Shown: positions 2,951 to 10,180 of the stretch, in pieces
Numbering within the stretch: the first letter of the stretch is position 1
Layout: each line of letters begins with the position of its first letter
Assembly (NCBI GenBank): GCA_050309605.1
Contig: JBNRMN010000018.1
Span: 1-10,180 of the forward strand
Direction: 5' to 3'
Origin: Anaerohalosphaeraceae bacterium
GTDB lineage: Bacteria; Planctomycetota; Phycisphaerae; Sedimentisphaerales; Anaerohalosphaeraceae
DNA: 10,180 nt
Notes under the pieces: model-generated
The model's input: the letters and a program-made list of their open reading frames with translations, nothing else
What the model was told of the DNA's origin: nothing
The model's database searches: none
Translations under genes and position numbers: made by a program

Positions 2951-3943
2951 TTAAGAAAAATGCAGCTCCACAATTTCTTTATCGGTCAGGACGTGGTCGC
3001 GGGGGACGTTTTGGCCGTCGTGGATGCCGGGGGCGTTCCAGGCACGGGCGCTTTTGAGCGATTCGGCCAGTTGGCGATGAATCAGCGTCGCCAGGTCCTG
3101 CACATCGGAGCCGCGCGGCAGCGTGAACGGCTCATTCATATCCGGTTCACGACCGGGCTTTTTGGCGTAAATCCGCACCACATCAAGCATTTCAAAGACC
3201 CGTTTGGCAAACGCATCCAGCCCCCGACCGGTGGACGCGGACACCTCGATATACTCAAACGGGCGCTCGGTCAGCTCTTTGAGAGTCTCCAGCGTGCCGG
3301 GCGGAGCGAGATCGGCCTTGGTCGCAATCACAAACGTTGGGCGGGCCAGATAATTGGCCGCATCGTCTTGATCGACCGTCGGATCCAGCATCAGCCGATG
3401 GGAATCCAGGTAGCGGGTGCAGACCTCCATCTGTTCAAGCACTTCACCGGCCAAATCAATGACAATCGCCAGCAGATCCGCCCCGCGGCAGGTATTGACA
3501 AACCCCGGCGCCGCATACTCAGCGGTGATCGGCGGCGTATCGACCAACTGAATCTGCACATCCTCATACAGCATCATCCCCGGCACGGGCTTTTCGGTGG
3601 CAAACGGATAGTCGGCGACATTGACCGGCGCATTGGTCAGGGCGGCCAAAATCGCGCTCTTGCCGGCGTTGGGCATACCGACCAGCACCACCTGTCCGGC
3701 GCCGCTGTGGGGCACGTGAAACACGTCCACATGCCGGGCGCCGCCTTTTTTGCCGGTGGTTTGAATCTCATCCTTGAGCTTGCTGATGCGGCGTTTCAAG
3801 TCGGCCTGCATGCTCTCGGTCCCCTTGTGCTTGGGGATGGTGCGCAACATCTCCTCCAGCGCCGCCAGCCGCTCGGTATCGCCGGCCGCGGAGCGAAACT
3901 TCGCCTCGGCTTTCTTGTATTCCGGTGTCAGATTCGCAGGCAC
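2951..3943 (-). CDS. DRG-like OBG-family GTPase with C-terminal TGS domain, 330 aa
   Basis: G1 GMPNAGKS, G2 ADYPFAT, G3 DTPP, G4 TKAD, G5 SAS. N-terminal helical region IPKHKGTE..ADLKRRISKLK like DRG proteins; TGS-like end (RIYAKKPG..P..L..GS.V.DLA..IH...GQNV.RDHVL.D.EIVELH). GTG start. Confidence 0.9.
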   Translation of the reverse strand: MPANLTPEYKKAEAKFRSAAGDTERLAALEEMLRTIPKHKGTESMQADLKRRISKLKDEIQTTGKKGGARHVDVFHVPHSGAGQVVLVGMPNAGKSAILAALTNAPVNVADYPFATEKPVPGMMLYEDVQIQLVDTPPITAEYAAPGFVNTCRGADLLAIVIDLAGEVLEQMEVCTRYLDSHRLMLDPTVDQDDAANYLARPTFVIATKADLAPPGTLETLKELTERPFEYIEVSASTGRGLDAFAKRVFEMLDVVRIYAKKPGREPDMNEPFTLPRGSDVQDLATLIHRQLAESLKSARAWNAPGIHDGQNVPRDHVLTDKEIVELHFS

Positions 3944-3997: not shown

Positions 3998-4026
3998 CTT
4001 ATACCGCAAAAGCCGGTTATCGTCAA
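3998..4026 (-). promoter_or_regulatory. Putative sigma70-type promoter for the GTPase cluster
   Basis: Minus strand TTGACG (4026-4021), 17 bp, TATAAG (4003-3998), about 55 bp upstream of the GTG start. Confidence 0.6.
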
Positions 4027-4348: not shown

Positions 4349-4533
4349 GAAAAAGCCGCCTACTTTTACATAACTATCTTATTTGAAACAACTTACAACA
4401 ATTCAATTGCATTGTTTTTTTGACCTTAACGTCGTATTATCAACACTGAAAAACACGATTCGGCGACATTGCGTTCAAAAGAGATGTCTAACATACCGAT
4501 AGGCCCCTTTTTCGATGGAAGCGAAAATGCCGC

Positions 4534-4562
4534 TTGCCGAATCGCACCCGATTCGCTACTAT
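4534..4562 (+). promoter_or_regulatory. Putative sigma70-type promoter with a 7-bp inverted repeat across its spacer
   Basis: TTGCCG (4534-4539), 17 bp, TACTAT (4557-4562); CGAATCG-CACC-CGATTCG at 4538-4555. Confidence 0.5.
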
Positions 4563-4613
4563 CCGCATGCCGTGATCTCTGGGGCAGTTGAATCAACATC
4601 ACACGATCGACCG

Positions 4614-6734
4614 ATGATAAAAAATCAATACGCAACAATTCAATGGATCGGCGGGGTGCTGGCAGCGACGATTTTTCTGTCGGCGTTTTTAGTGTTTCAG
4701 ATCCAGCCGTTGATGGGACGGTATATCCTGCCGTGGTTTGGGGGGATGCCGGAGGTGTGGACAGCGTGTATGCTGTTCTTTCAGGTGTTTTTGTTGGGCG
4801 GGTACGCCTATGCGCACGCGCTGCATCGGCTGCCGATGCGGTGGCAGGCAACCATTCATACGGTTCTGGTGCTGGCTGCGGCGGCCACGCTGTCGGTGAT
4901 TCCCGATGCCGCGCTGAAACCGACGCCGGCGGATGTGCCGGTCGTCAGGATTGTGTGGATTTGTGCGATCTGTGTGGGGGCGGCGTATTTTGTCCTGACC
5001 GCCACCAGTCCACTGGTGCAGAGCTGGTTTTCGCAGGCCCTGCCGGGACGCGACCCGTATCGGCTCTATGCGCTGAGCAACATCGGATCGCTGCTGGCGC
5101 TGGGCAGTTTTCCGTTTGTGTTTGAGCCGCTGCTCAGCCGCGACGCTACGGCGGCGGTGTGGTCATGGGGGTTTTACGGATACGCAGGATTGGCCGTGCT
5201 GTGCGCCGCGACGCTGATCGGAATCGAACGACGAAGGGCCGCCCCGGTCGGAAATCAGAAGACAGAGAGCAGAGGCCAGAGGGCAGAAAAAGGCCGTGCG
5301 GCGGACAAAGCACAACCGGCACGCCGCGATTGGGTATTCTGGCTGCTGCTGCCGATGGCGGCTTCGGTCGAGCTGCTGGCGGTCACCAACAAGGTCACAC
5401 TGGATATTGCCGTGATTCCGTTTTTGTGGGTGCTGCCGCTGAGTTTGTATCTGCTGTCGTTTATTTTGTGTTTTGACCATCCGCGATGGTATCAGCGCGG
5501 GCTGTTTCTGCTGCTGCTGATCGCAGGCATCCTCGGACATGTCTGGGTCGGACGCAAGGCCATGGATATGCACGTGGTCACGATTATCACAATCTATGCG
5601 GTGCTGCTGTTCTCGTGCTGTATGATCTGCCACGGCGAGCTGTATCGGCTGCGGCCGGCCCGTGGTCATCTGACGCATTTTTATTTGATGGTTGCCCTTG
5701 GCGGGGCGCTGGGCGGGGTCTTCGTGGCGGTCGCGGCGCCGCTGATCTTCAAAACCTATCACGAACTTCATCTGGGGATCCTGGCAACGGTATTGTGCGT
5801 GCTGATGTGCGAGAAGGACATCTCGCCGGCACTGGCCAAGCGGCGGCCGTGGTGGGTGGCGGCGCTGTGCCTCGGCGGCGCGGCGGGAATCGTATTACAG
5901 GGTCAGCGGCCCGTGGGCAATCAGCGCATTGTTGAGATGAGCCGCAATTTCTTCGGGGTCCTGACAATCCTTGAAGAAAACCCCGACGATCCGGCCCGGC
6001 ACAAGCGGCTGATGCAGCACGGCTCGACCTTTCACGGGCTGCAATTTATCGCCGCAGACAAACAATTCCTGCCGACGTCGTATTACAGCCCCGACAGCGG
6101 CGTCGGCCTGCTGCTGCGGCACTGGGCCAAGGATTCGCCGCGGCGCATCGGCGTGGTCGGGCTGGGCGTCGGCACGATTGCCGCCTATGGCAGCGAAGGC
6201 GACCTCGTGCGATTTTACGAAATCAACCCCGAAGTGATACGGATGGCGCGTCAGTATTTTTCCTATCTGGATGACAGCGACGCAGACATTGAAGTTGTGC
6301 TGGGCGACGCTCGACTGAGTATGACCTATGAGTCGCCGCAGCGGTATGACGTGCTGGCGCTGGACGCCTTCAGCAGCGATGCGATACCGGTGCACCTGCT
6401 CACCGCCGAGGCGTTTGAAGTGTATCTGTCGCATCTGGCCGAGGGCGGCGTGCTGGCGGTGCATATCTCCACGCAACATCTGGACTTACAGTCGGTGATC
6501 TGGAAGCTGGCCGAGCATTTTAAGCTGACCGGTCGATGGATTGAAACCTTTCCGGATGACGCCGCCGGCGCGATGGCCTCGGACTGGATTCTGCTGAGCC
6601 GCGACGGTGATATTCTGGACCGGGAGATTTTTCGCCGTCGCCAAAGCACGCCGTACGCCGATCTTGATCGCGTGCCGTTCTGGACCGATGACCACGTCAA
6701 TCTGCTCGGAATTCTCAAGAAAAAGGCCGACTGA
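4614..6734 (+). CDS. Fused multi-pass membrane (MFS-like) / spermidine-synthase-like SAM-dependent methyltransferase protein
   Basis: N-terminal TIFLSAFLVFQIQPLMGRYILPWFGG.PEVWTACMLFFQ..LL.GY.YAH, DPYRLYALSNIGSLLAL, CHGELYRLRP; C-terminal Rossmann motifs IGVVGLGVGTIAAY, FYEINPEV, LGDAR, YDVLALDAFSSDAIPVHLLT. The ORF is open from 4515, but ATG 4614 is preferred because it follows the promoter and directly precedes the first TM helix; start uncertain. Confidence 0.88.
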   Translation: MIKNQYATIQWIGGVLAATIFLSAFLVFQIQPLMGRYILPWFGGMPEVWTACMLFFQVFLLGGYAYAHALHRLPMRWQATIHTVLVLAAAATLSVIPDAALKPTPADVPVVRIVWICAICVGAAYFVLTATSPLVQSWFSQALPGRDPYRLYALSNIGSLLALGSFPFVFEPLLSRDATAAVWSWGFYGYAGLAVLCAATLIGIERRRAAPVGNQKTESRGQRAEKGRAADKAQPARRDWVFWLLLPMAASVELLAVTNKVTLDIAVIPFLWVLPLSLYLLSFILCFDHPRWYQRGLFLLLLIAGILGHVWVGRKAMDMHVVTIITIYAVLLFSCCMICHGELYRLRPARGHLTHFYLMVALGGALGGVFVAVAAPLIFKTYHELHLGILATVLCVLMCEKDISPALAKRRPWWVAALCLGGAAGIVLQGQRPVGNQRIVEMSRNFFGVLTILEENPDDPARHKRLMQHGSTFHGLQFIAADKQFLPTSYYSPDSGVGLLLRHWAKDSPRRIGVVGLGVGTIAAYGSEGDLVRFYEINPEVIRMARQYFSYLDDSDADIEVVLGDARLSMTYESPQRYDVLALDAFSSDAIPVHLLTAEAFEVYLSHLAEGGVLAVHISTQHLDLQSVIWKLAEHFKLTGRWIETFPDDAAGAMASDWILLSRDGDILDREIFRRRQSTPYADLDRVPFWTDDHVNLLGILKKKAD
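5256..5290 (+). repeat. Degenerate heptamer tandem repeat (CAGARNN)x5 inside the coding sequence
   Basis: CAGAAGA CAGAGAG CAGAGGC CAGAGGG CAGAAAA, encoding part of the hydrophilic loop NQKTESRGQRAEK. Confidence 0.65.
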
Positions 6735-7199
6735 ACCGTCCGCATCAGAACAAATCATCCATCGGGGCTGAACACGTTATCGGGCTTTTCCAAAAGAAAC
6801 CTTCGGCGTTATCGGACACTGTGCTTGATTGCGTAAAATTTTTTAGATTGTACTTGAGCGCACTGCAAGCGGGGTTTTTTATCATTCGCTCCGGTAACCC
6901 ATTTTCCGCACCGGGATATATCAACAGACAGGGACATATAATACCTTGGTTTTCAACAGAGTAATACGGAATACAGCAGGGCGATTTTCCCAAGAGATGT
7001 TCGGGAAAAATAACCATTGACCCCAATAACAGCGAATCATTTCCTCTTTGCTATCAAAGGATTTCCTTCGTTTTTTACAAATAGAACTTTTAAGTTCGTT
7101 TTATTTTTACGATGACACACCCCGTGAACAGGTTATCCCTGCAGGAAAACCAACGGCTGCGAACAGTCAATGTACTTCAATATCAGAAAGGAAGGCAGT

Positions 7200-7715
7200 A
7201 TGGCAAATACCACCACATCGCCCCCGCAGGCCGGCTCTGACAGGCAGAGTTTAGCGGGCAAATACCTGACGTTTACGCTGGGGGCTGAAGAATTCGGTCT
7301 GCAAATCCTTAAGGTTCGCGAGATCATCGGCTATATGGATATTACCGCCGTGCCGCGTGCCCCGCATGATGTGCGCGGCGTGATCAATCTCCGCGGGCAG
7401 GTCGTGCCCATCGTCGATATGCGGGCGCGATTCGGCATGGAGCCGATTGAGATCACCGACCAGACGTGTATCATCGTGGTCGAGGTCAAAGCCGGTCGGC
7501 AGAGCTTTCACACCGGCATCATCGTCGATCGCGTCTGCGAAGTGCTGGACATTGAGGACAAAGACATTGAGCCGACGCCGCAGTTTGACGGCAGCGTCGA
7601 TACGTCGTTTATCCTCGGCATGGGCAAGATCGGCGGCGCGGTCAAGATTCTGCTGGATATTGACCAGGTGCTGCATACACAGGAACTGGAGCAACTGGCC
7701 GACGTCCAGGTGTAA
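7200..7715 (+). CDS. cheW: Chemotaxis coupling protein CheW, 171 aa
   Basis: KYLTFTLGAEEFGLQILKVREII, ITAVPRAPHDVRGVINLRGQVVPIVDMR.RFG, GIIVDRVCEV, FILGMGK..VKILLDIDQVL. Start set to ATG 7200 after SD AAAGGAAGG rather than 7170. Confidence 0.96.
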   Translation: MANTTTSPPQAGSDRQSLAGKYLTFTLGAEEFGLQILKVREIIGYMDITAVPRAPHDVRGVINLRGQVVPIVDMRARFGMEPIEITDQTCIIVVEVKAGRQSFHTGIIVDRVCEVLDIEDKDIEPTPQFDGSVDTSFILGMGKIGGAVKILLDIDQVLHTQELEQLADVQV

Positions 7716-7763: not shown

Positions 7764-8195
7764 ATGGAACACATAGAATGGAGCGAGTCCTGTCGGATCG
7801 GCATTGATCGCATCGACGCTCAGCATAAACGGCTTTTCAATCTGGCCAACATCTTCTTTAAGACGCTCGACAGTCCCAAGCTGGCTGATTTCATCGAGGC
7901 GATCTTGTCCGGTCTGCTGGCCTATACCAAGAGCCACTTTGCCGACGAAGAGGCTGTGATGGAGATGTCGGGTTATCCGCATCTTCAAGATCACCGCCGC
8001 AGCCACCGCCGGCTTACCGAGGACGTCGAGGCGCTGAACAAACGCCTTCAGGAAGGCTTACCCATCGACAAGAATGCCGTCATGGTGTTCCTGAAAGACT
8101 GGTTGACGCGCCACGTGATGCAGGAAGACAAGCAAATCGGGCTATGGATACAGCAATCGTCTGTTCCCATCGGCCAGCAAACATCGACCCAATAA
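7764..8195 (+). CDS. Single-domain bacteriohemerythrin, 143 aa
   Basis: W...[42 protein letters not shown]: complete H/HxxxE/HxxxH/HxxxxD di-iron ligand set; SD GGAG. Confidence 0.95.
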
Positions 8196-8220
8196 CCCAC
8201 TGCAGAAAGGGTTTTTCGCC

Positions 8221-8607
8221 ATGAGCACATTCGAATGGTCAATGACGTATTCGGTCGGTATTGATGCAATGGATAATCAGCACAAGCGGCTCTTTGCGAT
8301 GGTGCAGCAACTGTATGAGGCGATGCACCATGGCAAGGGCGATCAGGTGATTTGCGAGATACTTGACCATCTACTCAGCTACACCTTACTCCATTTTTCC
8401 GCCGAAGAAGAGGTCATGCGCAAAGCCGGTTATCCCGATCTGACCTCCCACCTTGCCCTGCACAAGGCGTTTACGGACAAAGTCGGCCGGATGGCTGAAG
8501 ACCTCAAAACCGGCCGAATGGTCTCTGCCGCCGGCCTGGCAGCGTTCCTGAAAGACTGGCTCGTGCATCATATTCAGCAGGAAGACCGCCGATACGGTGC
8601 GTTTATC
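8221..8607 (+). other. Second bacteriohemerythrin domain
   Basis: [50 protein letters not shown]: all seven di-iron ligands present; SD AAAGGG upstream of 8221. Confidence 0.93.
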
Positions 8608-10180
8608 TGTGAAAGCAAACCGGTAAAGACGACTCGACACAGAAGCAACCTCCACTCTGCAACCGTTTTAACTGAAAGAGAATACCCCCCTATCAAAGGA
8701 AAGGACAGAACGATGTTTAAGAACATGAAACTGGGAACCAAGTTGATTTTGGCGTTTATGAGCGTCGCTGCAATCACGCTGATGCTCGGTGTGGTAGGCT
8801 ATTATGGCGCCGTGCAAAGTGAAAATTCGATCAATGAAATCGGTGCGGTACGCTTACCAAGTGTGGACAGTATGCTGGAAATTGAAAAGCAGGCTGAAAA
8901 TATTCGCGCCTCACTGCGTACATTGACCATTGCGGGACTGTCGCGTGAGGATCGCGAACGTCAATATCAAAATATTGAACAAGCCCATGAAGACTACCAG
9001 CAAGCATGGAAGATTTATGAACCGTTGCCCCAAACTCAGAAAGAAGCGGAATATTGGAATCAGTTTGTCAAAGCCTGGGACGCTTGGCGCGTCGAAAACA
9101 ATAAAGCGTTTGAGTTGTCTCGACAGTTTGATCAGATCGGTATTCAGGATCCGATGGATCTTGCCCGCCGATTGGAACAATATACCAAAGATCACTATAT
9201 TCTGGTTAACAACATACGGCAGCTTCTGGACGATTCTTCTGCAACCTTTCAGGGCGGCGACGATCATACCGTCTGTAACGCAGGACGCTATTTTCCGACC
9301 TTCCAAACCACGAACTCGGAATTGGCCTCGGCGTTGCGTGCTTTTGATGCGCCGCATCGTCGTTTTCACGAGACCGTCGGTCAGATCAAATTATTGGTTC
9401 AGAACGGCAATCAAGAGCAAGCCCGACAAATCTTTCAAAATGAGATGATGCCGGCTATGCAAGATGTCTTTGGCTCATTTGATACCATGCTGGCAATTGC
9501 CAATAACGCCAGCGATACCATGGTTGCCGCGCAGCAGCAGATTATGGGACCGGTGAGGCTTCGCCAAGAGGAGGCAACAGAATTGCTCGCCAAGATAGTT
9601 GATATCAACCGTGAAGTAGCTGCGAACGAAGTGGAAGACGCTCATGCTCAGGCCGTCTTTATTGAGATACTGTGTGTTACCGCCACGATCATCGGTGTCG
9701 CGCTGGCGATTGCGCTGGGCATTGTCATTACCCGTGCGATTACCAAACCGATCAATCAGATCATTGCCGGACTGACCGAAGGGGCGCAGCAGGTGGCGGC
9801 GGCGTCCGGACAGGTCTCGGCGGCCTCGCAGTCGCTGGCCGAGGGGGCAACCGAACAGGCGGCAGGATTGGAGGAAACGTCATCGAGCCTTGAGGAAATG
9901 TCCTCCATGACCAAACAGAACGCCGACAGTGCTCAGCAGGCCAACACATTATCCGATGAGGCCAGCCGTTCTGCCAAAAATGGTTCCAAACTGATGGGGC
10001 AGATGAGCAAGGCCATCGATGACATTCAGAAATCCTCGGATGAAACCGCCAAAATCATCAAGGTCATCGACGAGATCGCGTTCCAGACCAATCTGCTGGC
10101 ACTGAACGCCGCCGTGGAAGCGGCCCGGGCCGGCGAGGCGGGCAAGGGCTTCGCCGTCGTGGCCGAGGAAGTGCGGAATC
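8221..10180 (+). CDS. Methyl-accepting chemotaxis protein with in-frame N-terminal bacteriohemerythrin (Hr-TM1-4HB/CZB-TM2-MCP signal); 3' truncated; likely second start at 8713
   Basis: Manual translation of frame +1 shows no stop from ATG 8221 to the window end, which is presumably why the ORF track omits it. Hemerythrin motifs at 8221-8607; TM1 [25 protein letters not shown] (~8740-8814); TM2 [26 protein letters not shown] (~9655-9732); signalling hairpin [42 protein letters not shown]; methylation-type [16 protein letters not shown]. Confidence 0.93.
8695..8715 (+). promoter_or_regulatory. Internal ribosome-binding site and ATG for the MCP portion
   Basis: AAAGGAAAGGA, 7 nt, ATG 8713 followed by [15 protein letters not shown], a typical MCP N-terminus; closely resembles the cheW RBS region (TATCAGAAAGGAAGG versus TATCAAAGGAAAGG). 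Confidence 0.75.
9160..9492 (+). other. CZB-like (chemoreceptor zinc-binding) domain within the extracytoplasmic region of the MCP
   Basis: TKDHYILV (His 9193), [12 protein letters not shown] (Cys 9274), PHRRFHETV (His 9355, His 9367) match the CZB 3His/1Cys pattern H...CxxGx(W/Y)...HxxxH. Boundaries approximate. Confidence 0.75.

Follow-up and report, generated by a model that had tools for sequence, protein, structure and literature searches.

The 3′ end of a 10,180-nucleotide (nt) stretch of DNA from an Anaerohalosphaeraceae bacterium (contig JBNRMN010000018.1, forward strand; the whole stretch is referred to here as the window) carries a chemotaxis gene cluster of a Phycisphaerae-like planctomycete. 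The cluster consists of cheW, a stand-alone hemerythrin gene (Hr1), a second hemerythrin (Hr2) and a methyl-accepting chemotaxis protein (MCP). Hr2 and the MCP share one open reading frame (ORF), which occupies positions 8221..10179 of the plus strand and, according to both the ORF list and the sequence, runs for 653 codons up to the window end with no stop. Taking the sequence as it stands, a hemerythrin domain and an MCP signalling domain (MCPsignal) are found on a single polypeptide.

The reading frame that joins Hr2 to the receptor

Pfam matches follow one another along the long ORF. Hemerythrin covers residues 13-126 (69.9 bits, against a curated cut-off of 25.3) and 4HB_MCP_1 residues 168-302 (91.8 bits). 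These are followed by CZB at residues 325-389, with a score of 27.8 bits that lies just below its cut-off of 29.4, and by MCPsignal at residues 577-653 (109.6 bits; profile positions 3-79 of 172, the window end truncating the domain). The likeness of Hr2 to its relatives stops at Ile129 (codon 8605-8607). This agrees with the initial annotation of the DNA, which had placed the end of the hemerythrin core at about 8607 and had seen no stop between it and the MCP.

The linker that separates this core from the receptor is open in the Hr2 frame and contains out-of-frame stops at 8610, 8624, 8669 and 8673. The first three had been listed in the same annotation, as had a run of six C (C6) and a Shine-Dalgarno sequence 7 nt before ATG 8713; all of these are found in the sequence, and the stop at 8673 can be added to them. 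The core of the Shine-Dalgarno-like element GGAAAGGA is AAGGA at 8701-8705, 7 nt ahead of the ATG, and similar purine-rich sites lie upstream of cheW, Hr1 and Hr2 as well as of the MCP. ATG 8713 is in the Hr2 frame because its distance from the Hr2 start is a multiple of three (8713-8221 = 492 = 3 x 164). In all eight MCP relatives that were inspected, namely, the six closest matches and two proteins built like the chemoreceptor DcrH of Desulfovibrio vulgaris, the protein begins at a methionine matching 8713, with the motif M[FLW]K[NES][ML]K[LM].

The best match of Hr2 among solved structures is the hemerythrin domain of DcrH (E 1.7e-17). When the two are aligned, H (qHk), HxxxE (HfsaE), HxxxH (HlalH) and HxxxxD (HiqqeD) are all conserved, and the corresponding columns are presumably those of the iron ligands. 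In the literature, the diiron site is described as having five His, one Glu and one Asp as ligands (PMC9388753). Many of the best Hr2 relatives are proteins of ~265-335 amino acids (aa) with two hemerythrin domains (e.g., P0128, P0131 and P0136-P0143), and tandem genes such as Hr1-Hr2 are therefore often fused elsewhere. A hemerythrin tree of 222 rows and 129 columns was poorly resolved and offers a weak hint only.

The receptor part has the layout of a transmembrane MCP (Table 1). Lys and Arg residues lie on the N-terminal side of helix 1, and the location predicted for the hemerythrin is therefore the cytoplasm. Within the predicted periplasmic sensor, H325, C352, H379 and H383 (window 9193-9369) are invariant in 45 of 45 aligned sequences. 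These residues form a His/Cys/His/His motif of the kind that defines the zinc site of CZB domains, which suggests that the outer side of the receptor holds a zinc or oxidant-sensing site. A CZB domain also occurs together with a C-terminal hemerythrin in the database protein P0211.

Upstream, cheW probably starts at ATG 7200 rather than at 7170, the first ATG of its ORF. The sequence AAGGAAGG is located 4 nt upstream of ATG 7200, and similarity to the CheW of the closest related locus, L001, begins only near ATG 7200, not at 7170. Hr1 is 39% identical to Hr2 and 37% identical to its counterpart in L001. No cheA, cheR or cheB was found in the window, where cheW sits upstream of the MCP in the same cluster.

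Table 1. Features of the cheW-Hr1-Hr2-MCP cluster, in window coordinates.
Feature	Position	Strand	Basis
cheW, first gene of the cluster	7200..7715	+	Pfam CheW 129.2 bits; 82% identity to L001 CheW
Hr1, stand-alone bacteriohemerythrin, 143 aa, own stop	7764..8195	+	Pfam Hemerythrin 59.9 bits
Hr2 core, 129 codons, hemerythrin domain of the long ORF	8221..8607	+	Pfam; 57% identity to L001 Hr2 over residues 1-129
35-codon linker, former Hr2 tail plus Hr2-MCP intergenic spacer	8608..8712	+	Stop-free in frame; aligns with L001 tail, stop and spacer
Codon 139, CGA (Arg), site of the missing stop	8635..8637	+	Gap-free alignment to the TAA of L001 Hr2
C6 run within the linker	8685..8690	+	Same C6 in the L001 spacer
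Shine-Dalgarno-like element GGAAAGGA of the MCP, at present within the ORF	8698..8705	+	GGAAAGG in L001
Internal ATG, usual MCP start	8713..8715	+	Start shared with unfused relatives
Transmembrane helix 1 (predicted), ORF residues 171-189	8731..8787	+	Hydropathy scan
Periplasmic sensor (predicted), four-helix bundle with CZB-like His/Cys/His/His site	8788..9639	+	Pfam 4HB_MCP_1, TarH, CZB
Transmembrane helix 2 region (predicted), ORF residues 474-511	9640..9753	+	Hydropathy scan
Cytoplasmic signalling domain, incomplete at the window end	9754..10179	+	Pfam MCPsignal

Unfused genes in the nearest locus and the source of the linker

Species-representative genomes were scanned once with an alignment restricted to the sensor, and 34 related loci were obtained. 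The closest of them, L001, comes from a metagenome-assembled genome of the Phycisphaerae, and its genes are arranged as in the window, that is, a membrane protein, cheW, Hr1, Hr2 and the MCP, with identities of 80, 82, 37, 57 and 89%, respectively. In L001, Hr2 and the MCP are separate genes. The former encodes 138 aa and ends in a TAA stop (codon 139, at 3900-3902), after which a 98-nt spacer leads to the MCP ATG at 4001, 515 nt past the Hr2 start, so that the reading frames of the two genes differ.

The DNA alignment of the two loci is gap-free from the Hr2 core to past the L001 stop, and it places this TAA opposite the window codon CGA 8635-8637. Farther downstream, the L001 spacer keeps both the C6 run and, as GGAAAGG, the ribosome-binding site (RBS) of the window linker; the frame relation differs between the two loci because of a single 23-nt gap in the alignment. 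A stand-alone relative, P0132 (137 aa), has its stop at codon 138 and shares its tail end with the window Hr2. The window thus has no stop exactly where its relatives have one, and the linker is therefore made of the old Hr2 tail and the old spacer. The linker had already been taken for former intergenic DNA in the initial annotation, a view borne out by the alignment to the L001 spacer and by codon usage of non-coding character. Among the alternatives given there, a recent stop-codon loss fits best, as codon 139 (CGA) falls on the TAA of L001 Hr2.

The codon usage was assessed with a codon log-odds score trained on nine window genes (2766 codons). Read in frame, the linker has a mean score of -0.564, as compared with 0.411 (standard deviation 0.196) for 493 in-frame 35-codon stretches of genes and -0.638 for off-frame stretches. 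None of the 493 gene stretches scores as low as the linker, and the gap amounts to ~5 standard deviations, in a comparison that favours the genes slightly, as the scoring set contains them. The codon AGA, for instance, occurs three times in the 35 codons of the linker and five times in the 2766 gene codons. Given this non-coding usage, the linker would therefore have turned coding recently.

The junction was also inspected for other signals. The RNA of positions 8600-8740 folds no better than its shuffles (z +1.30), Rfam gives nothing at E up to 1 over the whole window, and a consensus scan found no promoter-like site inside Hr2 and no terminator-like sites above those of shuffles. A functional RNA element in the linker was considered and rejected. 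Programmed read-through or recoding was likewise rejected, there being no stop to read through.

The remaining loci indicate how the hemerythrins came to lie next to the receptor. Going upstream from the MCP match, 33 of the 34 loci show an in-frame stop within 95 codons, and the contig of the other one, L004, already ends at 29 codons. Hemerythrin ORFs occur in L001 only, the other 33 loci being without them, and in six loci (L002, L003, L010, L011, L012 and L024) cheW is the gene immediately before the MCP. Consequently, the two hemerythrin genes represent an insertion that has separated cheW from the MCP in the lineage to which the window and L001 belong. The hemerythrin genes (window 7764-8607; L001 3037-3899) are far more diverged between these two loci than their neighbours are, which could reflect either fast evolution or hemerythrin replacement. 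In addition, L001 shows a second MCP signalling-domain match (7832-8201) downstream of its first MCP, with 76% DNA identity to window 9811-10180; the cluster may therefore go on with another receptor past the window end.

Most protein relatives of the receptor are also unfused. A search with ORF residues 1-330 gave 203 proteins at E up to 0.001, and among the best 120 of these 203, precomputed Pfam domains include no hemerythrin in 118. The other two, P0009 and P0014, have a C-terminal hemerythrin, as in DcrH. P0001, an unfused, full-length protein of 676 aa, is 89-90% identical to the sensor/MCP of the window. A word-based search for longer Hr2 relatives gave one unrelated match, P0121. In the ESM Atlas, matches stayed under 0.9 and led to clusters of 4HB sensors, and no cluster with both domains was found, a result that is weak either way.

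Fused relatives and characterised sensors

A full HMMER scan with residues 1-224, together with a follow-up search, recovered a group of fused proteins that the word-based search with residues 1-330 had missed. In P0134 (823 aa), one matching stretch of the HMMER scan spans the hemerythrin, the junction and helix 1. The follow-up search added P0271 (510 aa, partial), which is named in NCBI as 'bacteriohemerythrin, partial [Anaerohalosphaeraceae bacterium]', P0272 (834 aa) and P0273 (809 aa). Hemerythrin precedes 4HB_MCP_1 in each of the four, the three complete ones also have MCPsignal, and all belong to the same MCP family as the window protein. The order of hemerythrin, linker, internal Met, helix 1, 4HB sensor, helix 2 and MCPsignal is also that of the window, and two of the four show a weak CZB match.

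Nevertheless, this group, none of whose members has been characterised, differs from the window in several respects. Its linkers are short and related to one another, with 21, 20, 24 and 21 residues after a YG motif as compared with 38 in the window, and they finish in QEG[DE]xx ahead of the retained Met. Judging from the protein sequences alone, QEG[DE] before the internal Met may reflect a retained RBS. All four proteins stay in frame although their linker lengths differ. Their hemerythrin domains are well conserved, at 76-94% identity among themselves, and their sensors are 72-85% identical.

The four proteins also form a separate clade. In a sensor-domain tree of 23 sequences, the window sequence is placed with P0001 and P0002, both unfused (support 99/97), and P0134, P0271, P0272 and P0273 make up a clade of their own (100/100) on a long branch. 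A single clade of the window and the fused four is rejected by the approximately unbiased (AU) test (log-likelihood difference 24.2, p 0.0011), for which the group was defined by architecture but with the quick tree already known. Two events are therefore needed, and, given the spacer-like linker of the window, the simplest reading is that two independent fusions of a hemerythrin with an MCP (Hr-MCP fusions) have taken place.

Fusions of hemerythrins with MCPs are common, but those with an N-terminal hemerythrin are not. Among the 150 best HMMER matches, 48 are at least 400 aa long, and all 48 were scanned against Pfam. Hemerythrin and MCPsignal occur together in 28 of them, with the hemerythrin on the C-terminal side only in 24, at both ends in three (P0160, P0183 and P0229) and at the N-terminus only in one (P0134). 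The C-terminal position is also described as the most frequent architecture in the literature (PMC4919030). The three proteins with two hemerythrins resemble the window ORF in that they open with a hemerythrin domain, after which come transmembrane segments and MCPsignal. In contrast to the window, they have a second, C-terminal hemerythrin, other sensors (sCache or none detected) and long low-complexity linkers, and are not related to the MCP family of the window. An archaeal MCP with an N-terminal hemerythrin was recorded in the 2008 survey by Bailly et al. (PMC2556348), and the literature search turned up no study of an N-terminal hemerythrin chemoreceptor. The novelty implied when the locus was first annotated is thus weakened by the N-terminal Hr-MCPs in databases and by the one in the 2008 survey. 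The window is a further member of a rare but already recorded kind, not a new kind of system.

DcrH is presented as the only characterised hemerythrin chemoreceptor in the literature, which also describes the way in which a hemerythrin domain signals to a chemoreceptor as unresolved even for this protein (PMC9388753, PMC13401364). As in the window ORF, a transmembrane MCP and an O2-binding diiron hemerythrin are found on one polypeptide, and the hemerythrin is cytoplasmic, O2 binding and location both being predictions for the window. The difference is in the order. The hemerythrin of DcrH comes after the signalling domain, at the C-terminus, as had been noted in the initial annotation and as is stated in PMC9388753, whereas that of the window occupies residues 13-126, ahead of helix 1. 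The role proposed for DcrH is negative aerotaxis in an anaerobe, with a signal that is suggested to travel from the hemerythrin, through the N-terminal loop of that domain, to the methylation region next to it (PMC9388753). This route is not applicable to the window ORF, because its hemerythrin is joined to the receptor via its C-terminal end.

A sensor at the other end of the protein is found in Aer of Escherichia coli, where the N-terminal PAS domain acts on the HAMP domain of the same protein. Aer is an MCP-like transducer whose membrane anchor is preceded by a cytoplasmic sensor, and in CetA/CetB, the energy taxis system of Campylobacter jejuni, the logic of Aer is split over two co-transcribed proteins (PMC13401364). 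The relation of Aer to CetB/CetA parallels that of the window, with a fused protein, to L001, where Hr2 and the MCP are encoded by separate, adjacent genes whose products may pair. The sensors themselves differ, as Aer and CetB use a PAS domain that binds flavin adenine dinucleotide rather than a hemerythrin, and Aer and CetA are without a large periplasmic sensor.

Interpretation of the fused reading frame

The best explanation, which we consider somewhat better than an even bet, is a real and recent stop-loss fusion of Hr2 with the MCP, in which the short MCP would still be made and the hemerythrin would serve as an added input. If the sequence is correct, as it appears to be, the Hr2 gene would have lost its stop recently, and the old spacer to the MCP, which happens to be stop-free and in frame, would have turned the two genes into a single reading frame. 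Initiation at 8221 would then produce a cytoplasmic diiron hemerythrin, the 35-residue linker, helix 1, the periplasmic 4HB/CZB-like sensor, helix 2 and the signalling domain. Initiation at the retained RBS and ATG 8713 would produce the plain MCP, which is probably still made alongside the long form; it is this retained start that points to two isoforms. The hemerythrin would modulate signalling through an additional O2 or redox input, similar to what has been proposed for DcrH. Held beside helix 1, near the inner face of the membrane, it may act on the membrane-proximal part of the signalling domain, in a way reminiscent of the N-terminal PAS domain of Aer.

Several observations weigh against this explanation. 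The missing stop rests on one sequence, and the window and L001 agree far less in Hr2 than in the MCP (57% vs 89%). The codon usage of the linker is non-coding and includes several rare codons, which speaks against long selection on the fused product and might lower its yield. Furthermore, when the 75 nt after codon 139 are shuffled 100,000 times, 32% of the shuffles are stop-free in frame; with a one-third chance of the right frame, ~1/9 of stop losses would therefore give an in-frame fusion, and the fusion may thus be neutral. It follows that the window alone does not show selection, and that the weight of the argument comes from the comparison with relatives.

Neutrality is at the centre of the first alternative, in which a genuine read-through serves no adaptive purpose. 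It would be neutral or slightly harmful, with the MCP still produced from its own start, the free Hr2 lost and the long product scarce, unstable or inert. This is unlikely. On the supporting side, the chance of an open in-frame spacer after a stop loss is the ~1/9 just given, the linker holds CGA and TTA besides its three AGA codons, Hr1 and Hr2 evolve fast (37% and 57% identity to L001), with Hr1 remaining as a free copy, and the nearest relatives, P0001 and P0002, are unfused. By contrast, a product without a role is not what would be expected from an Hr2 in which all iron-ligand positions are intact. The same architecture is also held in frame across the four fused proteins with their similar hemerythrin domains, and hemerythrin-MCP fusion is frequent in nature, as judged from the 28 of 48 long proteins among the best matches.

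A somewhat more doubtful alternative is that the fusion is an artefact or a minority variant, arising from an error in base calling or assembly or from a chimera of strains, and that Hr2 and the MCP are really separate, as in L001. In its favour, the two genes are separate in the closest relative, with a stop at the codon that aligns, the linker has a wholly non-coding appearance and the window is a single sequence. Moreover, the frame depends on the C6 homopolymer, a typical site of length errors, and with C5 or C7 in its place the Hr2 frame would close at 8726-8728 or 8718-8720, respectively, just inside the MCP. Such a change would undo the fusion but would leave Hr2 with a long tail. In fact, no single indel yields an Hr2 of normal length, as the stops at 8610 and 8624 precede a tail that still matches P0132 in frame and those at 8669 and 8673 are far downstream. 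A normal end needs a substitution at or near codon 139, and substitutions are rare among assembly errors. L001, which was assembled independently, has a run of six C as well, and four other contigs have open Hr-MCP fusions of the same family, so that such fusions are natural. The one-base assembly error offered initially as an alternative is accordingly weakened, the indels failing to restore the length of Hr2 and the C6 run recurring in L001.

Finally, it is very improbable that the fusion is old and selected, with the window in the lineage of P0134, P0271, P0272 and P0273 and the genes split again in L001: the domain order is the same, an internal Met follows a Gly/Lys/Asp/Glu-rich stretch in all five proteins, and the window Hr2, L001 Hr2, P0132 and the fused-group hemerythrins fall in one 17-row group of the hemerythrin tree (Shimodaira-Hasegawa-like approximate likelihood ratio support 93, not starred), but one clade for the five MCP parts is rejected by the AU test, the window sensor is 44-48% identical to those of the fused group vs 89-90% to that of the unfused P0001, the linkers are alike in neither length nor sequence (38 residues after YG vs 20-24), and the codon usage of the window linker is non-coding.

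A broader and rather speculative possibility can also be raised, which we hold with low confidence. The upstream hemerythrins may be detachable O2/redox sensors, the counterpart of CetB in CetB/CetA, that have been welded on at least twice in Phycisphaerae, with two isoforms in the window. If this were true, the isoforms would mix in dimers or arrays, and thereby set a cytoplasmic O2/redox bias on a receptor that reads a periplasmic CZB-type site.

The locus is of interest as part of a series, since one gene family is found in three natural states, namely, as separate genes (L001), as a fresh fusion with a recognisable spacer (the window) and as an established fusion (P0134 and its relatives). 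Such a series is useful for asking whether a free hemerythrin already works with the receptor and what tethering adds. It also provides a clean example of the onset of a gene fusion, in which a single stop has been lost, the spacer is in frame and the internal start is kept.

Other genes were noted elsewhere in the window. A 352-aa ORF at 137-1195 on the minus strand has no Pfam match. Nor does a 739-aa protein that is encoded at 4515-6734 on the plus strand and is rich in hydrophobic segments match Pfam at E up to 0.01. The latter is 80% identical to a protein found in the same place, upstream of cheW, in L001. A small Cys-rich ORF at 2704-2973 on the minus strand matches DUF6485 (41.7 bits) and overlaps the start of a GTPase gene by 23 nt (2951-2973).

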